A stretch of 64,000 nucleotides of DNA, from positions 2,571 through 66,570 of the forward strand of contig DAOVET010000002.1 of the NCBI GenBank assembly GCA_030668825.1. The letters are read 5' to 3'. Positions 7,734-47,195 of this stretch are shown here, in pieces. Each line of letters opens with the position of its first letter. Within the stretch, counting starts at the first letter, position 1. A program made the position numbers and the translations under genes. The notes under the pieces are model-generated. The model was not told where the DNA came from, searched no databases, and saw only the letters and a list, made by a program, of their open reading frames with translations. The stretch is from Candidatus Heimdallarchaeota archaeon. Its GTDB lineage: Archaea; Asgardarchaeota; Heimdallarchaeia; Heimdallarchaeales; Heimdallarchaeaceae.

Positions 7734-7865
7734 ATTCTTTCTGTTAACTCTGTTTTTATGATTAGTTTCTTTTTCAAAAAAGTGTCAATTTCCCATAAAA
7801 CCATTTAGACAGATTGTAACTAGAACCTCTATTTTTTTCGAACTTCTTGATTTGGTTAGATTCTA

Positions 7866-7921
7866 AAACAATATTTATATTATGTCTAAACACTATCTAA
7901 GAGTAGACAATTATTGGAGGT
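7866..7921 (+). promoter_or_regulatory. putative promoter (TATA-like 'TTTATATTA' at 7874-7882) and strong RBS (GGAGG at 7916-7920) for the surface-protein gene
   Basis: AT-rich TATA-like element about 45 nt upstream of the ATG at 7927. GGAGG lies 6 nt before the start codon. Confidence 0.35.
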
Positions 7922-7926
7922 CTAAA

Positions 7927-10900
7927 ATGAAAAATAAGTCAATTATGGGTTCAGTATTGTTGGGTTTAACAATTGTTCTGTTAACATTGAGCGGGTCAGT
8001 GACTCAAGCTCAAATAGTATCTGAGCAAAGTACACCCCATACAAGTGCTATGAACCTTGTTTTTGTAGAAGAAATGCGAATAATCGCTGGTATAGATTCT
8101 GCAGCTGTTATAGAATTAGACCTTATAGGTGGCGTAATGCCAGCTATAGATGCTAATCCACTATTCAGCGCAGTGAAAAATTGGGCTTTTATTGCTTCAA
8201 ATCAAGCAGGTTATCAAGATTATATATTAAGAAGACCTTTCAAATCACCTGATAATGCTACACTCTTGTTAGATGTTGATTCGTCTTTAGGAGTTGATGG
8301 CAGCTTGATAAGAGCAGTTGAAATAGCCTTGCTGTTTAATGCGGCTTATGGAACAAATTTGATGTGGTCAAGAGCAGAAGCATTGCCAGGAAGTTACTTA
8401 TACTTCTTTACTGGAGGAATGCCAAGCACCATATTCAGTACATTAATTGCTGAATATCAGACAGATATATCTGGTGGTTTTACATCTTTATTAGATCCTG
8501 TTGAAGTGACTGCTTCTCCCGTAAAAGTAGCTTTTATGGGTAGAATTGGTTTGGATGGATTGATAAGTGCTGCTAGAGGATTATATTATGTTGATGTAGA
8601 TGCAATAACAGGAGCTAGTATATATACTCTATCAACACACAATATCTTTGGCGTTGATGTAGCTCCAACTCATGGACTACTAAAATTCTCTGTTCTTAAG
8701 TTCAGATTCCCCTATACTATCAATCCTTTGAGCATTACACCTAAACCAGGTAACGTTGCTCCACAGATTACAGGAAAGATGGATTGGGACTTAAATGCAC
8801 CTTGGTTCGTAGCAAAACCTGCAATGAACTATGAAGTAGTCTATAAAATTAACCACACAGCACTAACCTCTGCTCCAAGAGTATCTGTAAATATGGCATA
8901 CGATCAAGATATGCTTAACAACTTTGGCAGATTACAAATGGACTATGTAGTAACCAACACAGGAACAGAAGATGCAGTAGATATAGATATTAGTTATCCA
9001 TTAGGACCTGATTTCTTAGATTTCTTAGCCAATAAACCAGATCTCTGGGAACTCAGAAATGATGTAACAATTGATGAAGGATATTCTAACACAATTAGCG
9101 GCAATGTTCTAATAACTTTTGACGGACCTTTATTCGCTGATGAAGTAGCTTATCCTGATATTGTTTATGAACAAGAATTTCTAGTTCTTGAAGGGTGGTA
9201 TAAAAATAACACAGATGGAAGTTATGTTGATATTGATCTTTTGAACAATGCTCAAGTAATAAAGACTGATAGTGCTTTCTATAATGTTCCATTAGTAGGT
9301 GATGGAACAGTTACAACTAATGTAACATTTAGTTCTCCAAACGGATTACCTAATACTTTAGTTAATTTTGCTACAAATCTTTTATTTCCAATCGATATGC
9401 CTTCCATTATGGTGAACATTCCAAATGTAATAAATGATTACAACATAAAAATCTGGGAAGCTGTACAAGCAACTGGAGATGATCTCTTTAATAGATTATA
9501 CATAAGGCAATCAATATTTGATCCAGAACTTATGGATTTCAATTTTACTGTTAGGGAAGTAGGACGAATTGGTTCAGAATATGCTTATGATGAAGTATTT
9601 CTTAACACAACTATTTCATTGCTACATCCTGGAGAATCTGTAAACGTTAGTTGGGCAATTGATAATATCCCTTCAAGAGATGATCATTATGGTATGATGG
9701 GTCTTGCAGAAATTAATGTAGATGCAACTTATCCTGCATTGCAACTAACAACTGTAGACAAGACTGGTTACGATTTAATGCGATACTTGTTCGGTGTAGG
9801 TGACGCAATTGCACCTAATTTAGGTGATAGATTTAGTCGACCTTTGAGTTACTATGAACCTTGGACTAAAACTTGGCTGTCAACTGGAGCAAGATTTGCA
9901 TATATGGATACTGAAGGCTTTGAATACTTTGGTTTCAGTAATGGAATAAATCTTCAAATAGCAGATGATGAAGCTGTTCTTAATGTTCATGTTTCATTGG
10001 ATAACACTACTTATCTAGTTGGTGATCCAGTTACCGTGTATTATTCAATTGAAAATACTGGTAATCTGCCAGCTGAAAAAGTTGTTCTCCTCCTGTTCCA
10101 TGGAAGAATGGGTGCAGATTGGCAAATCGTTGATTCTGAGTGGTTCTGGATAGATGATATTGGAATAATTGCACCTGGTACAACATATTATGGGCAAGCT
10201 GATGTTCTAGCAAATTCATTCTTAGGAATTCACCCAGTTTATGGTGTAGCAGGATTCAAGAGTGATGTTGGGCAAACAGTTCTATCTGATGGAGTTATTA
10301 ACATTGCACCAGGATTAACCTCTATATTTGAAGGAGCTGCTGAAACTTATCAACTCGTTGCTTCAAATATGGATTGGGGATTGGTACTACCAAAGACTCA
10401 AAACAGAAGACCTGCATTTCCACAACCAGTATTAGATATAGATGTAAATGTTAGATTTATCATTCCAACAGATGCACCTTGGGAATTAGAAATTACCATA
10501 ACAATCACAAACATTGGAGATGAAAGAACACACATAACTGCTATTCAGTTCTATAACGCTACTGAAATGCAACTATTAAGAAAAATCACCACAGATGGAT
10601 ATACAGCAAATGCAACACACTTAGGTATCGGAGTAATTCTATTTGAAGGAATAACACTCTTACCTGGTGAGGACGTTACCTTTACTATGAGATGGCTTTT
10701 CTTAACGAGTCAAGGATGTTACATTCCTGGTATCATTGTAATCTATGATAGTAGATTCGCAAGCGATGTAGGAAATGACATTGTAGATACAGCTGTAGAA
10801 ACAGATGCTCCGCTAATGACTGCATTAGGTGGGTCAGCTCAAGATGAAGAAGATTGGGAAGATTATGGAGAATCAACTCAAACAGGTTCTTCAGCAGGTG

Positions 10901-11025
10901 CTGATGTATTTACTGGTGGAACACATACTCGAAGAATAGGTTCATACGATATGGTCTTATGGTCAATCAGTGCTATATTTGTTACAGCAGTTGCAACCAG
11001 CATTAGAAAGAAACTTAAAAACTAA
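7927..11025 (+). CDS. large secreted cell-surface glycoprotein (candidate S-layer protein), signal peptide plus C-terminal TM anchor
   Basis: N-terminal signal 'MKNKSIMGSVLLGLTIVLLTLSGSVTQA'. More than 15 N-x-S/T sequons. C-terminus 'MVLWSISAIFVTAVATSIRKKLKN'. Strong RBS, followed by a poly-T terminator. Confidence 0.6.
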   Translation: MKNKSIMGSVLLGLTIVLLTLSGSVTQAQIVSEQSTPHTSAMNLVFVEEMRIIAGIDSAAVIELDLIGGVMPAIDANPLFSAVKNWAFIASNQAGYQDYILRRPFKSPDNATLLLDVDSSLGVDGSLIRAVEIALLFNAAYGTNLMWSRAEALPGSYLYFFTGGMPSTIFSTLIAEYQTDISGGFTSLLDPVEVTASPVKVAFMGRIGLDGLISAARGLYYVDVDAITGASIYTLSTHNIFGVDVAPTHGLLKFSVLKFRFPYTINPLSITPKPGNVAPQITGKMDWDLNAPWFVAKPAMNYEVVYKINHTALTSAPRVSVNMAYDQDMLNNFGRLQMDYVVTNTGTEDAVDIDISYPLGPDFLDFLANKPDLWELRNDVTIDEGYSNTISGNVLITFDGPLFADEVAYPDIVYEQEFLVLEGWYKNNTDGSYVDIDLLNNAQVIKTDSAFYNVPLVGDGTVTTNVTFSSPNGLPNTLVNFATNLLFPIDMPSIMVNIPNVINDYNIKIWEAVQATGDDLFNRLYIRQSIFDPELMDFNFTVREVGRIGSEYAYDEVFLNTTISLLHPGESVNVSWAIDNIPSRDDHYGMMGLAEINVDATYPALQLTTVDKTGYDLMRYLFGVGDAIAPNLGDRFSRPLSYYEPWTKTWLSTGARFAYMDTEGFEYFGFSNGINLQIADDEAVLNVHVSLDNTTYLVGDPVTVYYSIENTGNLPAEKVVLLLFHGRMGADWQIVDSEWFWIDDIGIIAPGTTYYGQADVLANSFLGIHPVYGVAGFKSDVGQTVLSDGVINIAPGLTSIFEGAAETYQLVASNMDWGLVLPKTQNRRPAFPQPVLDIDVNVRFIIPTDAPWELEITITITNIGDERTHITAIQFYNATEMQLLRKITTDGYTANATHLGIGVILFEGITLLPGEDVTFTMRWLFLTSQGCYIPGIIVIYDSRFASDVGNDIVDTAVETDAPLMTALGGSAQDEEDWEDYGESTQTGSSAGADVFTGGTHTRRIGSYDMVLWSISAIFVTAVATSIRKKLKN

Positions 11026-11026
11026 C

Positions 11027-11060
11027 TTTTTCTTTTTTCTTTTTCTTTTATTTTTATTCT
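11027..11060 (+). terminator. poly-T archaeal terminator after the surface-protein gene
   Basis: 'CTTTTTCTTTTTTCTTTTTCTTTTATTTTTATT' immediately after the stop at 11023-11025. Confidence 0.45.
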
Positions 11061-11114: not shown

Positions 11115-14105
11115 ATGGCAACTACAGTTGTAACCAATTCAGATTTATATGTTTTTGATAGTCTTATGTTATATAATTTTAAGATGCATAAGTCTACTGA
11201 ATTGTGTCTGTCTGAAGTTCCAATTGTTGTTATTTCAGGTGCCAATGGTAGTGGCAAAACACAGATTTTAGAAGCGCTGATTATGGCTATTGGTCATGTT
11301 CCTACTAGAGTCTCTTTGAGTACGTATAAAGAGATTATAGGCCCCTTTGATAATTACTCTCAAATCCAACTTAAACTGAATAATCCCAAACTTAGTGATA
11401 ACAGAATATTCACAACTTCCGATCCTGATCTCATACCATTTGTCGAGAAAGATTATTTTGTAATCGATGTGAAAATAAATCGTGAAGGTAATATCAGAAG
11501 AAAAGTAATTGATATGAAAGGCAAAGGAATAACCGTTACTAAAAGACAGATTCAGAATTTAATGAAGAACATAGGGATATTCGAGGATACCATGCTTAAT
11601 TTCACTGAAGAAGGATATCTTAGTTCTTTTGCTGATGGTTCTCCTCATAAGAAATTAGATAGTTTATTAGTTGCAACTGGTCTGAAACAAATATTTTCTA
11701 GCTATATTAATTCGAAGAAAAAAGTAGAAGAGAAGGAAAGGGAGCACTCGCCTTTAGTTATGCAATTAGAAAAAGAGGAGAGCAGATTAGAAAGACTTAG
11801 GGAGAACTTTGAAAGGATACAGATGAAAAGAGAACTCATACAACGATATGAGGTTCTTGAAAGAGAACTAGTCTGGTTTAATGCAATTGAAAGTCAAAAT
11901 CAATTTGAGGATGCAAACCAAAACTTAACCAGCAAAAAGAAAGAACTCGAAGAATTGGAAAAGAAACTTAGTATTTCTTCGATTGATCAAGATAATTTAC
12001 GTAAAGAGGTAAGAAAAGCAGAAGAAGAATTAGTAGATAGAAAAACTAGTATGAGGGAATTGTCAGATCAGGAAAATAGGTTGGAAGGTCAGAAGGAAGA
12101 AAAAAATCGAATAGTTCAATCTTCGAAATCTCAGATAGCAAATATCGACTTAAAACTAAGCGAATTTGAGACCATTCAAACAGATGAGGGGTTCTCACAA
12201 AAAAAGCAACTCCAGCAACAACTGGATAAAATTCATACAAGTATTTCACAATTGAACAGTGAGTTGCAATCTAGCCAAATTAATTTAAAAGACAAAGCAA
12301 CTGATGAAGACAAAATAAGACAAAGAATAAATGAAAGATCTCATCTTTATGGAGAACTGTCAGACTATGAGCGGAAATTAATAAAAGATTGTATATTGTA
12401 TAAGGAAAGAATTCAGAATTCAGATTTTAAAGATGAGATAATTGGACCTATATATGAGATCATCTCTATAAAGGAAGGTTTCGAAAATTATACAGATGTT
12501 GTAAAAGCAGCTCTTGGAAGATATCTCTTTGGCTTTGTTGCTACTACTCATGCAGCTTATAAAGAAGCAAAAAGCATTTACGATAAAATTTTCCCAACCT
12601 ATAAACCAAATTTCACAGTAGGGCGAATTTTGGAGGAAGAAAAAGGACCCAAACCTGATTACCTTACCAATCAATCATTGGAGAGTAAACCTGAAGGCAT
12701 AATTGATTTTGCAGTTAATTTAATTGAAGCTCCATTTCAAGTTAAGTTGTATTTGGTTAGGTTTGTAAGAATATTATTAGGCTCTCCATCTTTACCTCCA
12801 AATCTTCTAACAGACTATGCAAAGCAATATAAAACCAACATTTTGACAACAGATTGTAACAGTTTTTATCTTTCTCAAGAAGCATTTTCAAGACCACCAA
12901 GAAGATCCAATGTAAAACTGAGTTTAGATCTCAATAAATACCAGTCAATTGAACGTATAAGAGAACAACTACAATTAGTACAATTTGACATTGAGAAGAT
13001 TACCGAGGATAAGATCAGAATTACTGGAAGTTTAGCTGAATTAGACAACAGAAAGCGAGAGTTAGAGAACCAGTTGAAACCTTGGGAAATGGGAACTGAT
13101 GAAATTGAAAATGAATTTTTCAGGTTACAGCAAATCAAAAGTGCAGCTGAAATCTTAGTTAGAACTGAGACTGAAAACCTTTCTAAACTTGATGTGGAAA
13201 TCAACAAGATCACTCATGATATAGTAGATATTGAAAAGACTGTTACAGTACAACAAAAACAGTATGATGAAATCAGAAAGAAACTTAATCATCTAAATGA
13301 AGAGATTAAAGAACTCTCAGGAAGAAGAGACAAAAATCTAAAATTGATAAGTTTTCTTGAAATAGAAATCTTAGATTTAAAAGAAGCATATGAAAATCTG
13401 AATAAAGAAGCAAAGGAGAAAGGGGAACCTCCTGAAAGTATTCGTTCAGACAAAGAAGAAATAGCCTCCGAATATAATAAAGTTAAAGGACAATTAGAAT
13501 TATTAGAAATTACACCAGAAGTATCACAAGATAGCATCGAAAAACAAGAACAACAAGTAAGCATTTTGCAAGATGAAGTAAAAAATGCTGAAATTCATCT
13601 AAATAATCTTAAAAAAGATTTAGAAAAAAGAATTGATGAATGGGAAGGGGGTCTACATAATATTGTAGACCATCTGAACAAGATGCTGAATTTACTTCTT
13701 CAAGATGTTTTTGTAAATGTATCGATCCAAATTCGAAATTATTATGATGAGAAGTATGCAGGATTACATATTGAAGCTGAAACAAAGGGAGATAATAGAA
13801 AATATAGACAGCTTTCGGGGGGAGAAAAAACACTATTAGCTCAAGCAATCATTTTAGCTCTTCACATGATAAATCACTCACCAATTCATGCAATAGATGA
13901 ATTTACTCAAAAACTTGATAAGCGAAACAAAGCACTTGCTTTTTCCATGGCTTTAGCAACTTATAAAATCTCGAAGGAGAATAGGATAATTACTCCTCAA
14001 TTTATTCTTATAACTCCCTCTCTTGATGATGTAGAACTCTCTGAAGAGTTTACTCACAAAGTATTGATTGAGAGTAAAGTAAAACCTCATGAGGTGAAAA
14101 CATGA
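11115..14105 (+). CDS. smc: SMC (structural maintenance of chromosomes) ATPase, short-armed (996 aa)
   Basis: N-terminal Walker A 'LYNFKMHKST...VISGANGSGKTQILEALIMAIG'. Central hinge 'IIGPIYEIISIKEGFENYTDVVKAALGRYLFGFVATTHAAYKEAKSIY'. C-terminal signature 'RQLSGGEKTLLAQAIILALH...IHAIDEFTQKLD'. Long coiled coils. A canonical-looking start is also possible at 11166. Confidence 0.8.
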   Translation: MATTVVTNSDLYVFDSLMLYNFKMHKSTELCLSEVPIVVISGANGSGKTQILEALIMAIGHVPTRVSLSTYKEIIGPFDNYSQIQLKLNNPKLSDNRIFTTSDPDLIPFVEKDYFVIDVKINREGNIRRKVIDMKGKGITVTKRQIQNLMKNIGIFEDTMLNFTEEGYLSSFADGSPHKKLDSLLVATGLKQIFSSYINSKKKVEEKEREHSPLVMQLEKEESRLERLRENFERIQMKRELIQRYEVLERELVWFNAIESQNQFEDANQNLTSKKKELEELEKKLSISSIDQDNLRKEVRKAEEELVDRKTSMRELSDQENRLEGQKEEKNRIVQSSKSQIANIDLKLSEFETIQTDEGFSQKKQLQQQLDKIHTSISQLNSELQSSQINLKDKATDEDKIRQRINERSHLYGELSDYERKLIKDCILYKERIQNSDFKDEIIGPIYEIISIKEGFENYTDVVKAALGRYLFGFVATTHAAYKEAKSIYDKIFPTYKPNFTVGRILEEEKGPKPDYLTNQSLESKPEGIIDFAVNLIEAPFQVKLYLVRFVRILLGSPSLPPNLLTDYAKQYKTNILTTDCNSFYLSQEAFSRPPRRSNVKLSLDLNKYQSIERIREQLQLVQFDIEKITEDKIRITGSLAELDNRKRELENQLKPWEMGTDEIENEFFRLQQIKSAAEILVRTETENLSKLDVEINKITHDIVDIEKTVTVQQKQYDEIRKKLNHLNEEIKELSGRRDKNLKLISFLEIEILDLKEAYENLNKEAKEKGEPPESIRSDKEEIASEYNKVKGQLELLEITPEVSQDSIEKQEQQVSILQDEVKNAEIHLNNLKKDLEKRIDEWEGGLHNIVDHLNKMLNLLLQDVFVNVSIQIRNYYDEKYAGLHIEAETKGDNRKYRQLSGGEKTLLAQAIILALHMINHSPIHAIDEFTQKLDKRNKALAFSMALATYKISKENRIITPQFILITPSLDDVELSEEFTHKVLIESKVKPHEVKT

Positions 14106-14872
14106 CTGATCAAGATATTCTAGATGAAAGTTCTGATACAATTTCAGTCTACATTGAAGAAAATAGAGAATGGGTTGAGAACATATTTCAACTAGTTTTT
14201 GAGCTCAAGAGGAAATATGGTAGATCGATAAGAAAGAAAGAAATTGTGAGACTTCTAGAATCAGAGGAAGATCGGTCTAAAGTTTCTGATGCTTATCTAT
14301 ATTTACAGAACAAAAAAGAAAGCCTTCTGGATTCTGCTCTTTATGAAGATTTTATCAAAATGAATGATTTGAGAGAAAATGATTTTCTAGAACAGCTGCT
14401 TTATCCTCAAGAAAGGTTGAAAACCTTTGCAGACAAAGTAAGAAGTTTATGTGTTCCAATAACTTATTTCTCAGGAACAACTCAAACATCTTATGAAGAA
14501 CCATTAAATGCTCTAACAGAAGAAATCATTGAATTGGAATCAATTGAAAATATTGAACTTTTTGTGAAAAAATACCAGAACTTCTTTAAGAAATTAACAA
14601 CTAATTTTATAGATAAAGGTGAAATTTTGAATATTGAAAATATAATTAAAGACAAACTGATAGGTAAAAAAATCAAAAAGGTGAAGATTAACGAACTTTT
14701 GACATCTTTAGAAGCAGAGATTTTATCTAAAATGATAAGTGAGAAAAAGATTCATGTCATTTTAGAGAATGATGTACTGATTTTTCAAACTGAAATAAAG
14801 GATGAGGAATCTGATGGTGTCTCAAGTTCAGTTCTCCTCTCACCTAAGAACCCCAAAGTAGAGCGTGACTAA
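14102..14872 (+). CDS. scpA: putative kleisin ScpA (256 aa), called from operon position
   Basis: ATGA overlap with the smc stop. It is followed 2 nt later by a clear ScpB. The size fits ScpA. No strong sequence motif recognised. Confidence 0.45.
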   Translation: MTDQDILDESSDTISVYIEENREWVENIFQLVFELKRKYGRSIRKKEIVRLLESEEDRSKVSDAYLYLQNKKESLLDSALYEDFIKMNDLRENDFLEQLLYPQERLKTFADKVRSLCVPITYFSGTTQTSYEEPLNALTEEIIELESIENIELFVKKYQNFFKKLTTNFIDKGEILNIENIIKDKLIGKKIKKVKINELLTSLEAEILSKMISEKKIHVILENDVLIFQTEIKDEESDGVSSSVLLSPKNPKVERD

Positions 14873-14874
14873 TA

Positions 14875-15480
14875 ATGGAAGAAAACCATCTGGATCAATC
14901 CATTGATTCAAATGAGATTGCTGAAGAAAATAATTTCTTACCTTCTTCTATTTCAGATGAAGAAAAAGGAGAACTATTTAGAGAGTTAACTACAATTTTA
15001 TCTAGAAAATGGATAAAAGATAAAGTGACTGTTTTTGGTTGTTCTGAACTTGATTTATTATTGGCAACACGTTTTGATGTTCAAACCTTACGTGAAACAA
15101 TTGATGAATACAAAGCATTTGTTCAAATTTTAGGACTAAATGTAATTGATTATGACATGGATGGTGAAAAGTGGTACTGCTTAAGATCCTCTCATTACGC
15201 GCCTTCTGATTTACAATCTCCTGAATTAATAGTATTGGGGACTATAATTGCTTATCTTGAAAGTGATAAACAAAAACCAATAACTACAGAGAGGATTAAA
15301 GAAAAATTGGTGGTCACTGGCAGGATGAAGGAATACCTAGTTGATAATAGTTTGAGGAAATTAACAAGACTCGGATATTTCAAGAAGCAACAGAACGAAT
15401 GGGAATATAATTATCGGACCTACATAGAGTTTGGTGATGAGGAGAGAAAAAAAATTGTAGAGGAGTTCAGAAGGATTTGA
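14875..15480 (+). CDS. scpB: ScpB (segregation and condensation protein B)
   Basis: 'SPELIVLGTIIAYLESDKQKPITTERIKEKL...LVDNSLRKLTRLGYFKK...YRTYIEFG' matches the ScpB winged-helix pattern (LETLAIIAY.QPiTr.eIe.iRGV...L...GLi.....Y.TT..FLe.FGL). Confidence 0.7.
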   Translation: MEENHLDQSIDSNEIAEENNFLPSSISDEEKGELFRELTTILSRKWIKDKVTVFGCSELDLLLATRFDVQTLRETIDEYKAFVQILGLNVIDYDMDGEKWYCLRSSHYAPSDLQSPELIVLGTIIAYLESDKQKPITTERIKEKLVVTGRMKEYLVDNSLRKLTRLGYFKKQQNEWEYNYRTYIEFGDEERKKIVEEFRRI

Positions 15481-15929
15481 ATGAACAAGAAGCAATCTAT
15501 TGCTATATTCGTTGTACTTTCTGTAATCAGATGAAAACTCTAAGAGATGCTGCACTAGAAGGGTGGGAAGTTTGTGATAGATGTCAATTAGTATTTTGTA
15601 ATGAATGTAAGAAAAACACTGAAGAAGAATTCTGTCCAGGGTCTGTCTATACTACAAAACATACTGCTAGTTTTGGACTTCTTCCAATAGAACAAATTAT
15701 TGAAACAGCAAACAATATAGAGAAACAACCTAAGGAAAGCAAGTTTATTTCTAAGATATTTTTTGAAAAAGAAAAAAAGAAAATTGAAATACTCAAAAGT
15801 AACAAGAAGAAAAAGGAACCAGCTGATTTTAGTATCGTAAGATTTCGGGAAGAACAGTGGAGAAAATTTGGTACTGTTTTAGTCAAAAGGAAAGATGGTA
15901 AATTTCTAACTTGGGGTCAATTAGAATAA
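15477..15929 (+). CDS. Cys-rich zinc-finger protein (150 aa) with Lys-rich tail, last gene of the smc-scpAB operon
   Basis: TTG start overlapping the scpB stop (TTGA). Eight Cys in 'CYIRCTFC-x16-CDRC-x4-CNEC-x8-C'. Basic 'EKEKKKIEILKSNKKKKE' tail. Confidence 0.5.
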   Translation: MNEQEAIYCYIRCTFCNQMKTLRDAALEGWEVCDRCQLVFCNECKKNTEEEFCPGSVYTTKHTASFGLLPIEQIIETANNIEKQPKESKFISKIFFEKEKKKIEILKSNKKKKEPADFSIVRFREEQWRKFGTVLVKRKDGKFLTWGQLE

Positions 15930-15958: not shown

Positions 15959-18862
15959 TTATATCCCTGTAATTGCTTCTGCTCGAGAGCCTAGTATTAC
16001 ATTTGTTATGAAGAGACTAGTTATTTGCAATAACATTAGAAGTACTCCTATAGCACAGAAAATTTGGAATTTTAAAGGATTCCATGCCATATACCATGTT
16101 ATTGTTCCAGCTTTTGATGAGAATATCAAAAATATCGTCGTAGAGACTTCTGATAGACAATATAAGAAGGAAACCAGCGAACCAGCGAATATATTGAGGG
16201 AAATTAATGGTATAGTAATCCTTGAAAAAGTTCTCATTCTAGAAGCACCTAAATTGATGGAAGCTTCTTCTAAAACTACATCCACTTGTTGTAAACCCGC
16301 ATACGCTGATCGTACCGTAAATGGTATTTTTCTTATTGTATAGCTCATTATTAGCAGCGTTACTGCAACCCCAATGAATGGATCTAACTTCAATCCTGCT
16401 GTGATGTTGGCCATCATTTTGTTGAACCATGAAGGGTTCCTAGATGCTATACCACTCCAATCAAAAGTTCGATAATAACCAATGGCTAAGACAATACCTG
16501 GGATTGCAATAGGTAATGTTACAAGTGCATCTAAAATCTTCTTCCCTCTAAACTCCTTTCTGGCTACAACATACGCGGCAACTGAACCAATTACGATAAT
16601 TAAAAGTGTAGCAAGGACACTATAAACTAGCGTGTTAATTATATACGGTGGTATATCATACGTTGAAGATACAAATATCACTTTATAGTTTTCACCCGTG
16701 AAAGCTAGATCTGAGGGTTTCGTACCTCCAAGCGTTTCCATAAACGACATCAGGATGACTCCTGTATGCACCAATAATGAGAATGCAAATAGTATGATCA
16801 AAAATGGATAGATGTATAATAACTTCCATTTAGCTTTAGACATCCTGTATTGTCCTGCTCTACCTTTACTTACCATTGCATATGTTCGTAAAGATACATA
16901 CTTCCGGATCGCAAAGAACCCAATAAGTGCAATAATAAGGAGTATACCTCCTAATACACAGACCTCCGGCTTAATCTCTGCAGCTCCTGCTTTCTTGTAT
17001 TCTGAAAATACATAGTAAGGTAGAAATTTACTAGCAGCTGTATCTCCCATTGCTGTGAAGATGATTGGGGTTCCTACATCTTCCATAGAAAGAATCAAAA
17101 CTAATATAGCTCCAGCCCCGATTCCTGGCATAGCCAATGGCAAAGTAACAGTGGAGAATAAACGAAATTTTCCTGCTCCAAGATTCTCTGCTGATTCTTC
17201 CATGCTTGGATCTATGTTCAAGAAGGATGAAAAAGCATTGAGATAAACTAAAGCATAGAAATGAGATGTTTGAACAAACACAATAGCAAACAGCCCTGAG
17301 AAGATTAGCTTTGTTTGGAATGCTGGAATTAAGAAGAAGTTATTTAGAAATCCGTTAGGTCCTAGAATTAACCTGAAACCCATTCCTGATATGAACGGTG
17401 GTATAATGAGAGGAGCAAGTGCTAGTAAACTTACAAGTCTTTTTCCAGGAAATTCATACCTTGCTAAAACGAAAGCCAATGCTGTACCAAGTATTACTGA
17501 AAAAATAGTAGTCAAGATTCCAAGAATAATAGTGTTAAGAACCACACCATGATCTTTTCCACTTAAAGTTATAACAGTAATTTCTATAGTATCTTCATAT
17601 TCTGCGATCAGAGGTAATTCAATTAAAACTTGAGACATATCTAGGATTTGAGTACCACCTTTTAGTTGAGAGAGGAAAATGCGGTTTGTTGTAGTATCAA
17701 TGAAAATATCTGCTGTTTTATACACAACTGTATAATAGCTGTTGATGCTTACAAGATTTGATGGATCAGTAATGTCAAAAATTCGAACACCAAGATCATT
17801 CAAAGAGAAATCAAAAGAGACAAAGTAACCATAATTGTTTACAATCTGAACATCGTATAATTTACCAACAACAGTTTCGTCATAATACTCAACAAGTGTC
17901 ATATTTAATGGGTCTGTAATGTTGAAAATACCTAAACCATCATTTCCTAAGGTGATGTAAGCTAAATCTCCAACTATATCTATATCTTGTGCCCCCATAG
18001 TCCCATTTTCTGGATCATGAATAATATGATATAACTGTGCGTCAGTATACTCTGCTAACAGTAAAGGATTTTCTGGATCAGAAATGTCAAAGATTTTAAC
18101 TCCTGTTGTGAAACCTACAACATAGACAAGGTCATTATTAATAACAATATCAAATACATCTGTATCAATGGTTACATTAGATAGAATGGTTGGATTTATT
18201 GGGTTTGAAACATCAATTATTGCGAAACCCTTTCCATTGATATCTAGAATAGCTAAATTGTTTTCAACAGCGATAAAATCAGTAGTATCTGCTATATCAT
18301 ACATATGACACATAGGTGCAAAGCTTTCTCGAACATTAGAAATGTTAAAAATTACCAATCCACCTCTACCTGCAGCAGTGTATAATAGGTCATCTTTTAC
18401 AACTAATTCATTGAAACTACTAATTTCTTCGTAATACTGCCTTATTTCCGTAGTCTCATTATGTTGCGAGACATCTAGAATCTCTATACCTTCGCTTCTT
18501 TCAGCAACAAACGCAATATTATTATCAACAGCAATTGCTTCTGCTGGACCTCCATAATCTTGTTTATCCTTTGAAAAGAAATGGGTTTGATTATCTCCTG
18601 GGAAATTGAAGAATAAAGTTTTAGTAAAGACATTAGCTATAGGGGCACCAGACCACTGACCATTGAAATAAACAGCACCAGATAGAACCGAGAATAGTGG
18701 GATTACCATCCACACAATAAAAACAAAAGACACAAGGACGATGATGAAATTTGTCGAAGGTTCTCGTAATAGTTTAACATAAAGAAAATTAATTAATGAT
18801 CTTCTCTTTTTGCCCTTTCCCTCTTCACTTGTTTTTTTACTAGAGCTAGCCATTTTATTCAA
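15959..18862 (-). CDS. ABC transporter permease (two-domain, Fe3+/thiamine-type) fused to N-terminal extracellular LVIVD-repeat beta-propeller
   Basis: N-terminal basic cytoplasmic stretch plus TM, then repeated 'G(L/F/V)xIF(N/D)ISxPxNP' LVIVD-like units (GLVIFNISNV, GFAIIDVSNPINP, GVKIFDISDPENP, GLGIFNITDPLNM, GVRIFDITDPSNL). The C-terminal approximately 540 aa hold two BPD-type permease domains with about 12 TM helices. Confidence 0.7.
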   Translation of the reverse strand: MNKMASSSKKTSEEGKGKKRRSLINFLYVKLLREPSTNFIIVLVSFVFIVWMVIPLFSVLSGAVYFNGQWSGAPIANVFTKTLFFNFPGDNQTHFFSKDKQDYGGPAEAIAVDNNIAFVAERSEGIEILDVSQHNETTEIRQYYEEISSFNELVVKDDLLYTAAGRGGLVIFNISNVRESFAPMCHMYDIADTTDFIAVENNLAILDINGKGFAIIDVSNPINPTILSNVTIDTDVFDIVINNDLVYVVGFTTGVKIFDISDPENPLLLAEYTDAQLYHIIHDPENGTMGAQDIDIVGDLAYITLGNDGLGIFNITDPLNMTLVEYYDETVVGKLYDVQIVNNYGYFVSFDFSLNDLGVRIFDITDPSNLVSINSYYTVVYKTADIFIDTTTNRIFLSQLKGGTQILDMSQVLIELPLIAEYEDTIEITVITLSGKDHGVVLNTIILGILTTIFSVILGTALAFVLARYEFPGKRLVSLLALAPLIIPPFISGMGFRLILGPNGFLNNFFLIPAFQTKLIFSGLFAIVFVQTSHFYALVYLNAFSSFLNIDPSMEESAENLGAGKFRLFSTVTLPLAMPGIGAGAILVLILSMEDVGTPIIFTAMGDTAASKFLPYYVFSEYKKAGAAEIKPEVCVLGGILLIIALIGFFAIRKYVSLRTYAMVSKGRAGQYRMSKAKWKLLYIYPFLIILFAFSLLVHTGVILMSFMETLGGTKPSDLAFTGENYKVIFVSSTYDIPPYIINTLVYSVLATLLIIVIGSVAAYVVARKEFRGKKILDALVTLPIAIPGIVLAIGYYRTFDWSGIASRNPSWFNKMMANITAGLKLDPFIGVAVTLLIMSYTIRKIPFTVRSAYAGLQQVDVVLEEASINLGASRMRTFSRITIPLISLNIFAGSLVSFLYCLSEVSTTIFLIFSSKAGTITWYMAWNPLKFQIFCAIGVLLMLLQITSLFITNVILGSRAEAITGI

Positions 18863-19020: not shown

Positions 19021-20514
19021 TTACTTCTTCTTTCTCCTAAGTAAAACCATTGTAGCCACAAAAATTGATGTAATGAAGACAGGGATCATACCAAAAGCAT
19101 TTGTCGTTTCTGTTTCTGGAATCAAAATCCCAAGTATAGTATTATACTTTGTTTGAGCAAAATTTCTCCATTCTCCATCTTTTATTGCAGAAAAAGTTGC
19201 ATTCAATTGATATTGCGTATTCCAGTCTATAGATTCCTGCAAGGTCATTCCCGGTACTCCGAGATCTTCTATTAGTTCATTGAAGAATGTACTATTAATT
19301 TCACCATCTCTTAATTGTGTTACCATCTCACCCCAAGTATTTCTTAGCAGGGTGTGAAGTTGTTCAATTGTATTGTGGAAATAGTAAATGGTTGTAGCTA
19401 AGTTAGAAGTAGCAAGATCTTCGTCGAAGTCTATACCTACATTATCCAGTGTTTCATTGAATAGTAAGTATAAATCAGGTCTTAATTGTCCATCTGGGGT
19501 GTGAAAAGCATCTTCATTAACTGGTAATCGGTCTATACCTTCAGTTAACCAGATAGCTTGACCTTCTGGAGTATTTACGTATGTTAGAAACGCTGCAGCA
19601 GCATCATAGTCATCAACATTGATACCCATAGCGATAGGATCACCATTGACAATTGATTGACCTTGTGGGATTATGTACTCACAATCAAGATTCTCTCCCA
19701 TGGCTATTATTCCATAAAAGTCGATTGTCATAGCAATTCCCACTTCACCACTAACTACAGCAGCCCTTGTAGCTACTGATCCAGGATACATTCCTGAATT
19801 AGCACCCATTCTTGTCAGAATCGACCATCCTACATCCCAACCAAATGCTTGGAGGATAATTTGGTAAATTCTTGTATTGGATGTGGTTAAAGGTGGATCA
19901 CCCATACTAATAGCTTTAACACTAGGACTGATGTAATAAATTGGACTGGCTAATTCTTCCCAAGTTTTTGGTACTGGAAGAGCATGAGTGGTTAAGAAAT
20001 CATGATTAACAGTAAAACCAAAAGAAGAGATAGCATTTGCTGCCCAAACAAGACTTCCATTTGGTGCAAACGACTTCATACTTGCACCTGCTAATTCAGC
20101 AGGAACACTGTCGTTTATTGCTGTAAATAAAGCAGCATCAGTTACAGGATCAATGTGTTTTAACAAACCCCAATTATCCATAGTGTTGAACAAAGCTGGT
20201 CCACCACCCCATGCAAGATCCACAGATTTCGAAGGATCCTCTAGAAGTTTCTTCCATCCGGCATCTGTTGAAGCTTGTCTGAAATCAAATGAAGTAACAC
20301 CTAATGCAATCGCTTCTGGAGTCGCTAAGAAAGCAGCTTGAAATGCGTTTGTTAGAGTTGTATCATGTCGAGTAACAATGGTTAAGGTAACTGCATTAAG
20401 CTCTGGATTTGATGAGTTAGCAGTATCAACTTCAGCGTTAATCATAAAAACGGCTGAACCCATTGATATCGATGCAATTAAGAAAACTAGAATAGCTATT
20501 CTTTTTATATTCAT
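19021..20514 (-). CDS. ABC transporter extracellular solute-binding protein (family 1-like) with C-terminal TM anchor
   Basis: Signal/TM 'MNIKRIAILVFLIASISMGSAVF'. Periplasmic-binding-protein-like body. C-terminus 'TNAFGMIPVFITSIFVATMVLLRRKKK'. It lies directly upstream of the permease. Poly-T run downstream. Confidence 0.6.
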   Translation of the reverse strand: MNIKRIAILVFLIASISMGSAVFMINAEVDTANSSNPELNAVTLTIVTRHDTTLTNAFQAAFLATPEAIALGVTSFDFRQASTDAGWKKLLEDPSKSVDLAWGGGPALFNTMDNWGLLKHIDPVTDAALFTAINDSVPAELAGASMKSFAPNGSLVWAANAISSFGFTVNHDFLTTHALPVPKTWEELASPIYYISPSVKAISMGDPPLTTSNTRIYQIILQAFGWDVGWSILTRMGANSGMYPGSVATRAAVVSGEVGIAMTIDFYGIIAMGENLDCEYIIPQGQSIVNGDPIAMGINVDDYDAAAAFLTYVNTPEGQAIWLTEGIDRLPVNEDAFHTPDGQLRPDLYLLFNETLDNVGIDFDEDLATSNLATTIYYFHNTIEQLHTLLRNTWGEMVTQLRDGEINSTFFNELIEDLGVPGMTLQESIDWNTQYQLNATFSAIKDGEWRNFAQTKYNTILGILIPETETTNAFGMIPVFITSIFVATMVLLRRKKK

Positions 20515-20706
20515 TTTATAATCAACCTTCTTATTGATATCTAATAATATCAAATAATTATCTAGCATTCAGACTATAAAGTTTTTGCACTATTGATAAA
20601 AATGGTTTTTTAAGAAAAGCAATATGTAATAAATTCTTAACAATAGAAATAGCAATAAATTAACAATTATTACCAAAGAAATATAGCGCCCACAATTTTG
20701 ACATCT

Positions 20707-21200: not shown

Positions 21201-22802
21201 CTAATGAAAATTTACTTTTTTCTGTTCATATCCTATTTTATTTCCATTATCATCTTGAAATATCAATTCAATGAATGTGGGACCTAAAAAGTTTGTAGCA
21301 GGAATTTCAACCATTTTAGGTTCATGAGAGTTAGCTTCTAAGAGCATTGGATAAAGGTGATTGGTATATATTCCACCTCTCGTAAAAGATACTCTCAGAG
21401 TTCCTATTATTCCTTCCTCACTACGATTATATAGATGAACTGGGATACTGAAAGGTTTGTGAATTGGTGCTGTATCTGATGTTGTTACTCTTATTTCAAT
21501 GGTTTTATCTTGTTTGTCCAGATCCAAGCTTGGTAATGAAAACTTCCAGTTGAGGTTTTCGAACATAGTACCTTTAGTTTTCTCGTAATCTTCATTACTA
21601 GTTCTCTTCTTTCCCTCAGCTAAGCCTTTATCCCACTTGACTTCTTTGTGAGCATGTATGGATATTTCGTGTTGATTCATATCATCATAACTGTAACGCA
21701 CTTCTCTGATGTTTGAATCCCCTAAAGTATTTCCTCTCTGCAAGATTATGCAACTAGGATTTCTATACAAATATCTAAAATCGTGTTGCAAAGTAGGGTC
21801 TATTGGGAACCAAATGCCATTTGCAAAAAACTCAGCTTGTGAGTGATGAACCCAGCCTTCATATTCACTTAGGATGATACTTGTAGTTAATCTAGCGGGA
21901 ACATTACCTGCTCTACATAAACTTACGAATAGGGATGAAAATTCTGTACAATCTCCTAATTTGTTTTCTATTGCGTATGTAGCCCCATAATCTCCATCTT
22001 GGGGAACATAGACTAAATTCTCCTTTACATACTTCAAAAAAGCTAAAACTTTACTTAGTGGAGGATGGGAAAGGTATTTTTTTGCTATATTAACAATGCT
22101 TTCATTAGAGGATTCAAGAAATGGTTCGGATTTAGTATATTTCTGGTAGACCTGAGGATAAAGGGTTTCGATATTTTTTTCTTCACCTCTTAAACGTGTA
22201 ATATCGTAAGCAACCAAACGAGTAACGATATCTGCTTTATACGCAATAGTTATCTTTTCTCTAGGATTAATTTGATGAAAATAAAATCTTAGCCATCGAT
22301 TCCCATCATTATCAGTAATTAGTTTTGTTGGCTTGTGATTGCTCTCAGCGTTCAATACCTGCTGAATAGGAGAGATAGATGGCGGAATCATAACATCAAG
22401 AACAAAGTTGTTCAGAGGAAAATTATTTGGATTTTTTAGTTGAACTCCATAGAATAGAATCCAGCGATAAATCAAATGTTTATTTGTACGGATATTTACC
22501 TTTTCTCTTATTTTATAATCTCCTTCAATTTGGAGAAAATAGGTACCAGAATATAAATCAGGAGTTATTGGAAACGAGTAAATTTTCTGTAAGCCTGTTT
22601 CTTCTAATCTTACTTGATCAGAATCGATAATAGTACCAATGGGAGAAATTAGGAGAATGTGCAATTTCTGATTTTTTCTACTCCCCACAAAAGGAACAGC
22701 TTCCTCTTTACCTGAGATTAATATACTGTCCCCTATCTCTAAAGCCAAATCACTAGATAAAGGTCTTGCCTTATTCTGTTTAACATGAACAATATTAATC
22801 AT
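21201..22802 (-). CDS. transglutaminase-like superfamily protein (Cys-His-Asp core)
   Basis: 'KLGDCTEFSSLFVSLCRAGNVPARL' (catalytic Cys) and '...HHSQAEFFANGIWFPIDPT' (His/Asp). Confidence 0.6.
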   Translation of the reverse strand: MINIVHVKQNKARPLSSDLALEIGDSILISGKEEAVPFVGSRKNQKLHILLISPIGTIIDSDQVRLEETGLQKIYSFPITPDLYSGTYFLQIEGDYKIREKVNIRTNKHLIYRWILFYGVQLKNPNNFPLNNFVLDVMIPPSISPIQQVLNAESNHKPTKLITDNDGNRWLRFYFHQINPREKITIAYKADIVTRLVAYDITRLRGEEKNIETLYPQVYQKYTKSEPFLESSNESIVNIAKKYLSHPPLSKVLAFLKYVKENLVYVPQDGDYGATYAIENKLGDCTEFSSLFVSLCRAGNVPARLTTSIILSEYEGWVHHSQAEFFANGIWFPIDPTLQHDFRYLYRNPSCIILQRGNTLGDSNIREVRYSYDDMNQHEISIHAHKEVKWDKGLAEGKKRTSNEDYEKTKGTMFENLNWKFSLPSLDLDKQDKTIEIRVTTSDTAPIHKPFSIPVHLYNRSEEGIIGTLRVSFTRGGIYTNHLYPMLLEANSHEPKMVEIPATNFLGPTFIELIFQDDNGNKIGYEQKKVNFH

Positions 22803-43020: not shown

Positions 43021-43100
43021 TCTTTTCCTTTTAATTTCTGTTCATTGATTTTTTGTGTTTTTTTTGTGTTTTTAAGCTATATTGCAATAATAATATCATT

Positions 43101-45278
43101 ATGAAAAATTCAGATGCAAATATAGACCTTAGTAAGCTTCTAAATGATTCATACATAAGTGATCAATTCAATAACCTAGCTAAAGAAAAGAAGAAATTTA
43201 TTGAAGAGTTGACAGATGAGGAAAAGAAGATTTATACTGAAACTATATCTTATATTTTCACAGAAGAAAAATCTGATGCTAAAGTGTCTCGTAGTTTTGC
43301 AGAACCCTTTCAGGTGACATGGAGAAAAATACACTGCCAAAAAGATTTCTTGCGCACTGCTATTTTACCCAAAATCACAAAAGATGTTCTTGTTAAGGGT
43401 TTTCCTACAAGAATAGGAAGCCACCCTGGGTTTGATGATGTCTTCTTAGGAGTTGATTCCAAAGGAAAATTTGTCTTTGGAGTATTTGAACTGAAAACAA
43501 ACAAGATTGGAAGTACTTCCCATAGACTCGATAAAGGAACCGAAGCAAGCAAATTGATAGCATTTAATTTGCGAAAAATGAGTACTAAATTTGTTGAAAA
43601 ACTAGTTCTTGATGGTGTGGATTTGAAAAAGGCTCAACGTATTGGAAACGCTCTATTTAATAGATTCAGAATGTCAGCAACTGCAATCGGTTTTGATTTT
43701 CAAAGAAAAGTATCAAGTATGGATATTGTTAAACTATTCCATAATTATTTTGATATACAGCTTATAAATAAAATTCTTGAAGCTGCAATTAAACAAAATC
43801 AGCTAATATCTTTAATAAAAACCTGCTATGCTTTCAAGAAGGAAATCAAAAACAAATATGTTACTGTTGTTAAAGATAAAACTACTGATGTCACAAATCT
43901 AATCAATCTAAATTACAAATACAAAAAAGGTAAAAAAATTGAAATTCCTATCAGTGGTGATTTCTTTAGGATTGATTATGATTTACATACCAAGGAGTTT
44001 AAATTTCCGCAGTTTTCTAGCTCTGCTTTAGGTGTTACTACTTTATCATTTGAGCAGAAAAGAGCTTATTTCAGTTTGAATAAACTAATTAGAAAAGCAC
44101 TGAAGAAAGTTGAGCTATCAATTGTGGATGAAAGTGGGGAATTATTGCAAACAAATGAAATAATTAAAAGATTAAATTCAATGCAATCATTTGTGTATAA
44201 AGCACTGATTAAATCAAGAGTTTTTGATGATTTTCAGGTTTTTCATAAAGGTACAATGTTTTTCTTTCTTGAAACTTTATCAAGTGAGAGTAATGAGAAG
44301 AAAATATCTAGATATTTGAAGAATTATTCAAGCTATAAAGGAATAGCTAATTATCATTATCATCAAAAATGGATAGTTCCTTCTATTTTAGACTTAGGTA
44401 TTTTTGTGGGAAATTTAAAAGAAGAAAATGAAAACTCGCGTAAATTCAGATTATTTCTGTATAAACATCTACTTGATGGAAGTTCTACTGATACAAAAGA
44501 TATGGATATTGAAGAGATTGAAGAGCTTATAACCTCAAATTCTGAATTAAGAGATTATCTTATTGGAAATTTCAGACGTGATATAAGATTACCTGATGGT
44601 TATTTCTGGACTCAAGCAATAAATTCCACACACTTGAAGAAAGCTTTGGTATTTTGTAATGTAAGAGATAGCAAACCCAAAAAGATGTATGGTTGTAATT
44701 TATATACAAGCTATGATTTTCAATACCTTCTAAAGGATTTGGAACTCGATTCCATACTCCTTCAAAATCCTATTACATTTGGAATTAATGAAGGTAGGTT
44801 AGTAGCAGATTTCAATACAGATAGGAATGTTAAGATTGCAAAAGTATGGATAGAATTTTTATCAGAAACCACAGATATTCCAAAGAATACACTACAAAGA
44901 CTCAATACTCATCTAGGACCTGGTGGTGGGATAGATCTATTATATCCACAAACTAACTGTGAATTACTCAGAATGTTGGTTGTAATTCTATTAAAATTCC
45001 AAGAAAATTGGGACAAATTAACATTATACATTATTCAAGAAATAAAAACAAAACAAGTACAATGGGAAATTGAAACTTTAAAAAAGAACAACCCTGTTAT
45101 ATTTGTTAACAAAAGGAATCAAATAACAATTAATGGTGAAGAAGCAATCATAAGATTAGGAACATTAGATGGAACTAATTGGAGAACAACAAGACCATTA
45201 TACTGTTTAGCAAACAGCTCTTGTTGGTTTAATAATATCATCTCTATCTTCAAGAGAGCATACCAAGAAATTATTTAA
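43101..45278 (+). CDS. large hypothetical protein (725 aa) with N-terminal Hjc-like PD-(D/E)xK nuclease core
   Basis: 'HPGFDDVFLGVDSKGKFVFGVFELKTNK' parallels the Hjc motif 'PDIIALKSG-VIILIEMKSRK'. The remaining roughly 570 aa are unrecognised. The track ORF starts at 43053. Confidence 0.5.
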   Translation: MKNSDANIDLSKLLNDSYISDQFNNLAKEKKKFIEELTDEEKKIYTETISYIFTEEKSDAKVSRSFAEPFQVTWRKIHCQKDFLRTAILPKITKDVLVKGFPTRIGSHPGFDDVFLGVDSKGKFVFGVFELKTNKIGSTSHRLDKGTEASKLIAFNLRKMSTKFVEKLVLDGVDLKKAQRIGNALFNRFRMSATAIGFDFQRKVSSMDIVKLFHNYFDIQLINKILEAAIKQNQLISLIKTCYAFKKEIKNKYVTVVKDKTTDVTNLINLNYKYKKGKKIEIPISGDFFRIDYDLHTKEFKFPQFSSSALGVTTLSFEQKRAYFSLNKLIRKALKKVELSIVDESGELLQTNEIIKRLNSMQSFVYKALIKSRVFDDFQVFHKGTMFFFLETLSSESNEKKISRYLKNYSSYKGIANYHYHQKWIVPSILDLGIFVGNLKEENENSRKFRLFLYKHLLDGSSTDTKDMDIEEIEELITSNSELRDYLIGNFRRDIRLPDGYFWTQAINSTHLKKALVFCNVRDSKPKKMYGCNLYTSYDFQYLLKDLELDSILLQNPITFGINEGRLVADFNTDRNVKIAKVWIEFLSETTDIPKNTLQRLNTHLGPGGGIDLLYPQTNCELLRMLVVILLKFQENWDKLTLYIIQEIKTKQVQWEIETLKKNNPVIFVNKRNQITINGEEAIIRLGTLDGTNWRTTRPLYCLANSSCWFNNIISIFKRAYQEII

Positions 45279-46431: not shown

Positions 46432-46546
46432 TATATATTTATAGAAAAAAGTGCATATATACACCACAAAAATATCTTACAAAAATATTCGATATGGAGG
46501 GAAACTTTAAAGTATTAACTTGAGAATTAGAGGGTTAAGATGATGA

Positions 46547-47041
46547 AGAATTCTTGTAGACAATCAAGAAATTCTTCATTATACTGAAAATCAACTGGCT
46601 GATTACAGATGTAAAACTGTAGGTTTAATCTATCAGTCTTACAATTTAGCGCAGTTCTTGACTGTCAAAGAAAATATAGAGTTTCCAATGTTATTGGCAA
46701 AAACACCACTAGAAAAAAGAGAAAAACGTATTGAAGAGCTAACAGAATTTCTAGAAATTAGTAGATACATTGAGCAAAAACCTGAATTCTTGAGTGGAGG
46801 GGAACAACAACGAGTTGCGATTGCTATTGCCTTAGCAAATAATCCTCCAATAATATTAGCTGATGAGCCTACAGGTAATATTGATGTAGAAACAGCAGAA
46901 ACAGTTTACACCAATTTATCTCATATGTGCCAAATCTATAACACAACTCTTGTGATAGCCTCACATGATCCAAAAGCCTCAGAATATACAGAAAGAGAGG
47001 TAATTCTAACAGAATTAGAATCCAATAAGATAAGAAGGTGA
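46547..47041 (+). pseudogene. 5'-truncated ABC transporter ATP-binding protein (MacB/LolD-like), lacking Walker A
   Basis: The frame opens after a TGA at 46544-46546 and reads '[47 protein letters not shown]...[32 protein letters not shown]...SHD'. Q-loop, signature, Walker B and H-loop are present. There is no P-loop and no ATG. Confidence 0.55.
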
Positions 47042-47195
47042 AAATTAGTAGAAGAAAGAAACTTATCGAATATAGAAAAGCCTGTGATGATTTATGTAAA
47101 TTTAATGGAGCTAGCTATGTTCCTTTAAATTGAAGGTGAGTTATAATGATATGTAAATACGAATTATTCACTTTTTTGTTTTTGAATTATGGAAC

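Follow-up and report, generated by a model that had tools for sequence, protein, structure and literature searches.

A candidate membrane-anchored envelope glycoprotein of the Heimdallarchaeaceae with a predicted PIG-T-like N-terminal head

The DNA analysed here is a 64,000-nucleotide stretch (hereafter, the window) from a Candidatus Heimdallarchaeota archaeon with a low-GC genome (about 33%), taken from assembly GCA_030668825.1 (contig DAOVET010000002.1, positions 2,571 to 66,570 of the forward strand). It contains an open reading frame (ORF) of 1032 amino acids (aa) that the original prediction, made from the letters of the sequence, had put forward as an S-layer protein or major surface glycoprotein. 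The ORF was recovered at positions 7927–11025 of the forward strand, and we consider it on balance probable that it encodes a membrane-anchored envelope (surface-coat) glycoprotein of the Heimdallarchaeaceae, made as a single-gene transcript. The best reading is that the protein is neither an enzyme nor a demonstrated S-layer protein. The proposal of an exported, C-terminally anchored envelope protein was upheld, whereas no known S-layer protein appeared among the structural matches listed. The protein belongs to a previously uncharacterised and unannotated family of Asgard surface proteins of approximately 1000 aa. Its most distinctive feature, which the original prediction missed and which is worth following up, is an N-terminal head predicted to resemble PIG-T, the scaffold subunit of the eukaryotic glycosylphosphatidylinositol (GPI) transamidase.

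The N-terminus displayed the features of the cleavable signal peptide that had been proposed, with an MKNK n-region, a hydrophobic core of 18–23 residues within residues 5–28, and a cleavage-type motif (VTQA followed by Q) in which Q27 and A28 were present in at least 90% of 41 homologs; cleavage is predicted after the conserved TQA. The proposed transmembrane (TM) helix and Lys-rich tail were likewise found at the C-terminus, as residues 1008–1027 followed by RKKLKN. The ectodomain is acidic, with 122 Asp and Glu residues against 55 Lys and Arg residues, and the sole cysteine is C931 in the fifth of the domains described below (D5). On the other hand, the claim of more than 15 N-glycosylation sequons was not sustained, and the heavy glycosylation that it implied was not supported, because the number is at chance level. 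Specifically, 11 N-X-S/T sequons (X not P) were counted, one of which (N3) falls inside the signal peptide, and residue shuffles gave 8.0 ± 2.6 sequons, with 348 of 2000 shuffles reaching 11. The orthologs contained 5–19 sequons against an expected 6–11, and the count over the 41 homologs was just slightly above expectation. Only three sequons were conserved in position: N110 (40 of 41 homologs), N877 (36 of 41), and N895 (33 of 41).

The stalk that precedes the TM helix was unexpectedly conserved despite its predicted disorder, and a W-x-x-Y-[SG]-x-[ST] motif recurs 40–60 residues ahead of the helix throughout the wider family. In many distant or sister-clade members, PGF or GF[LIV]G occurs where the TM helix begins and is followed by an RKRK-type tail, which is the layout of archaeosortase-type sorting signals. 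The clade of the window protein reads TRRxGSxD at the start of the helix instead of PGF (TRRIGSYD in the window protein itself). The Heimdall-CTERM model scored 17.5 bits in one distant relative (P0078), below its cut-off of 24, and no archaeosortase gene was found adjoining the relatives with PGF-like C-termini. Cleavage followed by lipid anchoring is possible but unsupported for the window protein, for which lipid anchoring is speculative because it matches neither the PGF-CTERM nor the Heimdall-CTERM model.

The structure of the protein was predicted with AlphaFold2 without templates from a 41-sequence alignment (mean predicted local distance difference test score [pLDDT], 76; predicted template modelling score [pTM], 0.57). 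Residues 1–39 and 942–1032 were disordered in the model, and the ectodomain is predicted to form five beta-rich domains (D1–D5). From the membrane outward, the predicted order is an acidic disordered stalk of about 60 aa, D5, D4, D3, the hypervariable D2, and D1. When the family profile was compared with itself, three mutually related CARDB-like sandwiches were identified at around residues 317–470, 683–780, and 834–945, and D1 and D3 were unique. The hhalign probability between D4 and D5 was 96%, and D2 was also related to both in hhalign comparisons. The Pfam CARDB family (PF07705) matched residues 685–723 of the window protein with 24.2 bits (cut-off, 22.7) and was matched in 27 of 36 family members; N-terminal fragments of the orthologs also gave CARDB matches. 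The beta-sandwich domains for which the original prediction had suggested looking are present. Sandwiches of the CARDB type are a typical feature of cell-surface proteins in archaea, and the CARDB, DUF11, and TRAP-beta sandwiches are generic parts that make up about one-third of the protein and are uninformative on its specific function.

The most conserved stretch of the protein was the end of D3 (approximately aa 655–700). Close relatives that were 84–86% identical overall differed at 19–31% of positions in aa 336–550 (window positions 8932–9570), compared with 8–12% elsewhere, and in D2 alone 26–31% of the positions differed. Such hypervariability, as read from these alignments, suggests that one face of the protein is under diversifying pressure, which might come, for instance, from viruses or partner cells. 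Against the closest genome, identity was 86% for this protein and 93–97% for every one of its neighbours. At a larger distance it tracked its faster neighbours, with 43% identity compared with 42% for the SMC-like protein encoded downstream and 66% for AMP phosphorylase. The faster evolution than that of the neighbours in the closest genome, together with the concentration of change in D2 and D3, is what would be expected of a protein exposed at the cell surface.

A word-indexed search of 5.8 billion proteins identified 45 homologs with 30–100% identity, nearly all of full length (1008–1048 aa). Every one was annotated as a 'hypothetical protein', and those with a named source were all from Heimdallarchaeaceae or Heimdallarchaeota metagenome-assembled genomes (MAGs). 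A scan of the GTDB species genomes found 28 loci, all in Heimdall-type genomes (including the AB_125 bin, at 73% identity), and close orthologs were present in every Heimdallarchaeaceae genome found. A phmmer search of 1.84 billion representative sequences yielded 64 matches, about 30 of which were distant and mostly of full length (939–1071 aa, 23–33% identity). These were named as Kariarchaeaceae, Heimdallarchaeota, Baldrarchaeota, and one 'Methanobacteriota archaeon' MAG, and the same layout of a signal peptide and a C-terminal anchor was present in this wider family of 970–1070 aa. When the 5.8-billion-protein set was searched a second time, with a profile of the wide alignment, nothing beyond the known close orthologs was returned. 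Homology to an enzyme family, which the original prediction had named as a result that would speak against it, was not found in searches of Pfam, NCBIfam, and PDB sequences; these gave only weak CARDB, DUF11, and TRAP_beta matches.

The closed Ca. Heimdallarchaeum genomes contained two copies each (loci L022 and L024 in Ca. H. aukensis; L023 and L033 in Ca. H. endolithica), and a second, divergent type of paralog occurred within the Heimdallarchaeaceae (P0066 and P0071). Two family members (P0078 followed by P0094) were encoded in tandem on one 300-kb contig (L036, 10001–16098). These paralogs may indicate hetero-oligomeric surface assemblies. Two other ORFs of approximately 970 aa in the window were considered as paralogs and rejected as unrelated (an LVIVD–ABC permease fusion and an S8 subtilase).

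The expression signals of the gene were also conserved. The TATA-like element and the perfect GGAGG that had been noted were both retained in an alignment of 13 orthologous upstream regions, as were the transcription factor B recognition element (BRE), the TAGACA sequence, and the ATG, down to 46% protein identity. Because the proteins encoded at these loci are only 46–86% identical to the window protein, this conservation of non-coding sequence is selective rather than due to chance. A putative transcription start near TAGACA implies a leader of approximately 23 nucleotides (nt), and a TTCGAA-containing motif upstream of the TATA box is a candidate site for a regulator or transcription factor. 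A longer reading from the ATG at position 7882 was excluded: this ATG abuts the 3' end of the TATA box and precedes the putative transcription start in the 13-locus alignment, so the ATG at 7927 is the real start codon. The long poly-T terminator that had been proposed corresponded to a T-rich tract kept in the 12 Heimdallarchaeaceae orthologous loci examined, and the conserved promoter of the next gene stands just past it. A scan for bacterial-type promoters and terminators (sigma-70 and hairpins) was uninformative for an archaeon. The full GGAGG is scarce among the other genes of the window, and the effective number of codons (ENC) was 39.2, only marginally below the values of the other long genes of the window (39.9–46.8). 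With the conserved promoter, the ribosome-binding site, and the ENC as proxies, the envelope protein is probably abundant.

In the Heimdallarchaeaceae, the gene lies between a GH57 glycosidase/GalT pair and an operon for an SMC-like ATPase, an arrangement kept down to 43% protein identity, whereas more distant relatives share only a looser neighbourhood (a PfkB-like kinase and AMP phosphorylase). An operon link to the GH57, GalT, or SMC-like neighbours was rejected: promoter and terminator belong to the gene itself, and distant relatives have other neighbours. The synteny is read as positional orthology and general colinearity. The intergenic gaps on both sides of the gene and its differing neighbours in distant relatives point to a putative single-gene transcription unit.

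In the explanation favoured here, the protein would be exported by the Sec pathway, cleaved after TQA28, and N-glycosylated at N110, N877, and N895, and the C-terminal helix would hold it on the outer face of the membrane. Alternatively, the PGF-like C-termini of the sister clades suggest that sortase-type processing and a lipid might hold it there. Together with its paralog or paralogs, the protein would build the proteinaceous coat seen on Heimdallarchaeaceae cells, with the D1–D2 head, by analogy, most likely mediating protein–protein contacts, either in self-association or in the docking of other surface proteins, and the fast-evolving D2/D3 face presumably exposed and directed outward. 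Cryo-electron tomography of a cultured member of the Heimdallarchaeaceae revealed an amorphous protein coat and no paracrystalline lattice (bioRxiv 10.1101/2025.11.06.686947), and the coat explanation agrees with this proteinaceous, non-crystalline coat. Several observations weigh against it. The coat of the cultured relative, besides being amorphous, is not tied to this protein in particular, and what the protein best matches in structure is no coat protein but one subunit of an enzyme complex. No similarity to a characterised S-layer protein was detected in the sequence searches or among the structural matches listed, and the window protein matched neither PGF-CTERM (TIGR04126) nor Heimdall-CTERM (NF045529) at E ≤ 1. 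The sequons were not enriched over the residue shuffles, the ENC, although lower than that of any other long gene in the window, was no outlier, and the geometry between the domains is uncertain at a pTM of 0.57.

When the full model was searched against the PDB with Foldseek, human PIG-T ranked first (E = 2.9e-11), followed by the fungal Gpi16. An FMO protein (9.3), PBN1/PIG-X (8.0), and OST1 (6.1) stood lower among the structural matches listed. The PIG-T-like module comprises about residues 43–475 (D1 and D2) and, being the N-terminal part of the protein, is membrane-distal. AlphaFold2 is unlikely to have memorised the PIG-T structures, since their release in 2022 came later than its training cut-off. 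D1 and D2 are predicted to resemble the two-lobed luminal domain of PIG-T/Gpi16, and the model contains both of its elements, a 'rib-cage' beta sheet with helices and a beta sandwich. The likeness covers the fold, in which helices decorate a large, twisted beta sheet and a beta sandwich follows, and the type I layout, in which a signal peptide is combined with one TM helix at the C-terminus. In PIG-T (PDB 7W72, 7WLD, 9UB7; Pfam PF04113), a twisted ten-strand 'rib-cage' sheet with helices is combined with a nine-strand sandwich and one TM helix; the second lobe rests on the membrane, and its juxta-membrane part binds GPI (PMC9098846).

The window protein also differs from PIG-T. It is twice as long, with three more domains and the stalk between the module and the membrane, and its TM helix does not directly follow the equivalent of lobe 2. 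The two proteins share 10–11% identity, with no sequence signal at the profile level. PIG-T was not found in PDB profile searches with the window protein, and the Pfam Gpi16 family matched neither the protein, nor 36 family members, nor 10 N-terminal fragments (the fragments even at E ≤ 10). A PIG-T profile was built from 13 vertebrate sequences and two Gpi16 fragments, with human PIG-T verified against the PDB, and hhalign was run both locally and globally, with reversed and block-shuffled profiles as controls. Sequence-level homology was rejected, since there was no signal relative to these controls (probability 0.3%; local score 20.3 against 16.1 ± 2.3 for block-shuffled profiles), although this negative result is weak because the PIG-T profile is shallow (effective number of sequences [Neff], 2.2). 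A conserved cysteine of PIG-T forms a disulfide bond with the catalytic subunit PIG-K, and D1 and D2 have no equivalent cysteine, the only one (C931) being in D5. No counterparts of PIG-K, GPAA1, PIG-S, or PIG-U were found within the 64-kb window or adjoining the orthologs. The window protein is also fast-evolving, and its function is probably different from that of PIG-T.

The readings that compete with a general coat protein differ in what they make of these features. As a bona fide S-layer protein, the window protein would assemble itself into a regular two-dimensional lattice forming the outermost wall, and such a paracrystalline S-layer is possible but is not required by the envelope-coat explanation. 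All the surface-protein features of the window protein would suit this reading equally. Furthermore, the tightly constrained length (1008–1048 aa) and full-length alignment of the family suggest strong structural constraint, and the paralog pairs, including the tandem pair, are reminiscent of two-component S-layers. Within the same archaeal class, a preprint on cultured Hodarchaeales describes two putative S-layer proteins (KTGHC1_P6247 and KTGSC1_P0196) that are N-glycosylated near the N-terminus, conserved across many Asgard lineages, and predicted to form a homotetramer with a central pore (bioRxiv 10.1101/2025.02.26.640444), to which the window protein, compared by description rather than by sequence, might be a counterpart. 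The best-conserved sequon of the window protein is N110, and its family likewise spans several families of the Heimdallarchaeia and the Baldrarchaeota. However, the cultured relative has an amorphous rather than a paracrystalline coat, known S-layer proteins were absent among the structural matches listed, and the NCBIfam 'putative S-layer' model PACE-CTERM-PROT scored only 17.9 bits against a cut-off of 110, in a distant relative and over the CARDB stretch only. The S-layer reading is plausible, yet we regard it as unlikely. The S-layer glycoprotein of Haloferax volcanii (csg) has a Sec signal peptide, a chain of Ig-like sandwiches, an acidic composition, a membrane-proximal Ser/Thr-rich stalk, and a C-terminal hydrophobic helix with a basic tail. 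The window protein shares this overall layout of csg and the other PGF-CTERM substrates of archaeosortase A, and its sister clades carry the PGF or GF[LIV]G sequence. Unlike csg, however, the window protein has no PGF motif and has an N-terminal PIG-T-like module without a counterpart in csg, to which it showed no sequence match or listed structural match.

A specialised adhesin, or a receptor for recognising partners or viruses, would use the variable D2/D3 face to bind partners, substrates, or cells rather than form a bulk coat. The variability of D2 and D3 against a conserved remainder, the long stalk and anchor, and the syntrophic habit attributed to cultured Asgard archaea would all suit this role. 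On the other hand, no recognised ligand-binding domain was found in the protein or its family in Pfam searches, and each family member has, per genome, a single conserved and syntenic copy under a strong promoter that is likewise conserved. This single copy and promoter suggest a housekeeping structural role over an accessory adhesin, which we regard as unlikely. Still less likely, and in our judgement very doubtful, is a functional counterpart of PIG-T that would serve as the scaffold of an archaeal complex for cleaving C-terminal signals and attaching lipid anchors, a kind of proto-GPI-transamidase or sortase. The shared type I layout of a signal peptide, an external domain, and one C-terminal TM helix (PMC9098846) is consistent with such a role, as is a 2026 study that traces the GPI transamidase complex to Asgard ancestors, though only at the pathway level. 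However, the module is N-terminal and separated from the membrane by about 470 residues and the 60-aa stalk, whereas lobe 2 of PIG-T lies on the membrane. No C13 or M28 peptidase, PIG-U-like, archaeosortase, or multi-pass partner gene was found nearby or in the 64-kb window, and this lack of partners, together with the geometry, makes a PIG-T-type scaffold role unlikely. The unmatched Gpi16 family at E ≤ 10, the hhalign score no better than that of the shuffled null, and the lack of a cysteine mirroring that of the PIG-T–PIG-K disulfide also argue against it, and fast evolution with a hypervariable D2 would be unusual for the scaffold of a core complex.

Table 1. Features of the envelope protein gene and its product, in window coordinates
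Feature	Position	Strand	Description
Upstream motif CCTCTATTTTTTTCGAAC containing TTCGAA	7826..7843	+	About 35 nt 5' of the TATA box; alignment columns invariant or nearly so across 13 orthologous upstream regions
Archaeal core promoter	7863..7881	+	BRE-like CTAAAA at 7863–7868; TATA box TTTATATT at 7874–7881
TAGACA	7904..7909	+	Putative transcription start/initiator region; invariant in 13 loci; about 26 nt past the TATA centre
Shine-Dalgarno GGAGG	7916..7920	+	6 nt 5' of the ATG; invariant in 13 loci
Coding sequence	7927..11025	+	1032 aa, stop codon TAA at 11023–11025; type I surface protein, family restricted to Asgard archaea
Signal peptide, aa 1–28	7927..8010	+	Predicted from hydropathy and motif; conserved in homologs; pLDDT <50
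D1, aa 43–335	8053..8931	+	Predicted mixed alpha/beta domain similar to lobe 1 (the 'rib-cage') of PIG-T; conserved sequon N110 at 8254–8262
D2, aa 336–475	8932..9351	+	Predicted CARDB-like beta sandwich at the position of PIG-T lobe 2; most variable domain
D3, aa 476–680	9352..9966	+	Predicted unique helix-plus-beta domain; first half variable
D4, aa 681–785	9967..10281	+	Predicted CARDB/DUF11/TRAP-beta-like beta sandwich
D5, aa 836–945	10432..10761	+	Predicted third CARDB-like sandwich; holds sequons N877 and N895 and cysteine C931
Stalk, aa 946–1005	10762..10941	+	Acidic, Ser/Thr/Gly-rich; predicted disordered, pLDDT <40
Stalk motif W977-E-D-Y980-G-E-S983-T	10855–10878	+	W977, Y980, and S983 invariant in orthologs
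C-terminal TM helix, aa 1008–1027, with basic tail RKKLKN	10942..11022	+	Hydrophobic; putative membrane anchor or degenerate sorting signal
T-rich tract	11026..11060	+	35 nt of TTTTTC-type repeats abutting the stop codon; likely archaeal oligo-T terminator

Among the neighbouring genes, three ORFs of 256, 201, and 150 aa, closely packed or overlapping and without a significant Pfam match, come after the one for the 996-aa SMC/Rad50-like ATPase (the four together at 11115–15929 on the forward strand). The order of this four-gene block is kept across the Heimdallarchaeaceae, with 41–96% identity in the ATPase, and the block has its own conserved promoter just past the terminator of the envelope protein gene; it may encode an uncharacterised SMC-like complex. 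On the reverse strand, a 967-aa protein (15959–18862) consists of LVIVD repeats, a beta-propeller-type extracellular domain, fused to an ABC-transporter permease. This fusion is kept in related genomes and adjoins a solute-binding protein (19021–20568, also on the reverse strand). A 533-aa protein with a transglutaminase-like cysteine-protease core (21201–22802, reverse strand) is of interest because enzymes with the transglutaminase fold can process or cross-link surface proteins. Three consecutive large ORFs of 741, 398, and 471 aa at positions 43053–48611 had no Pfam match and are followed by a 554-aa NosD/right-handed beta-helix protein (48819–50483, reverse strand). The 970-aa S8 subtilase (57668–60580, reverse strand) has DUF4350 and ABC_transp_aux-like regions and ends in a C-terminal hydrophobic helix and a basic tail (..WVIAILFVSLAMVPVIRFRFRK), suggesting an anchored surface protein with the same style of anchor as the envelope protein.

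The Heimdallarchaeaceae are close archaeal relatives of the eukaryotes, and the cultured Asgard archaea show no lattice or only putative S-layer proteins. The family described here, which is universally present and syntenic in the Heimdallarchaeaceae and has conserved high-expression signals, provides a strong, testable candidate for their main coat protein. If the model is correct, the PIG-T-like head ties the family structurally to the GPI machinery of eukaryotes in a way not reported before; in the searchable literature, no paper was found that linked Asgard archaea to PIG-T or Gpi16. We suggest only tentatively, as a less probable interpretation, that the D1–D2 head shares its ancestry with eukaryotic PIG-T, the module having been recruited by eukaryotes as a scaffold for GPI anchoring. 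More loosely, the head may be related to PBN1/PIG-X, OST1/ribophorin I, and TRAP-beta, which occurred lower in the match lists. If the similarity does not reflect common descent, the protein is still an archaeal surface protein of an ordinary, albeit uncharacterised, kind. If it does, it bears on the origin of the GPI and glycosylation machinery of the endoplasmic reticulum (ER) lumen: a module of an archaeal surface protein would have been recruited when the apparatus for cell-surface secretion and glycosylation became the ER, and one subunit of the GPI transamidase would have a concrete archaeal starting point, in a family in which the surface protein of sister clades itself carries a putative sortase-type C-terminal signal.

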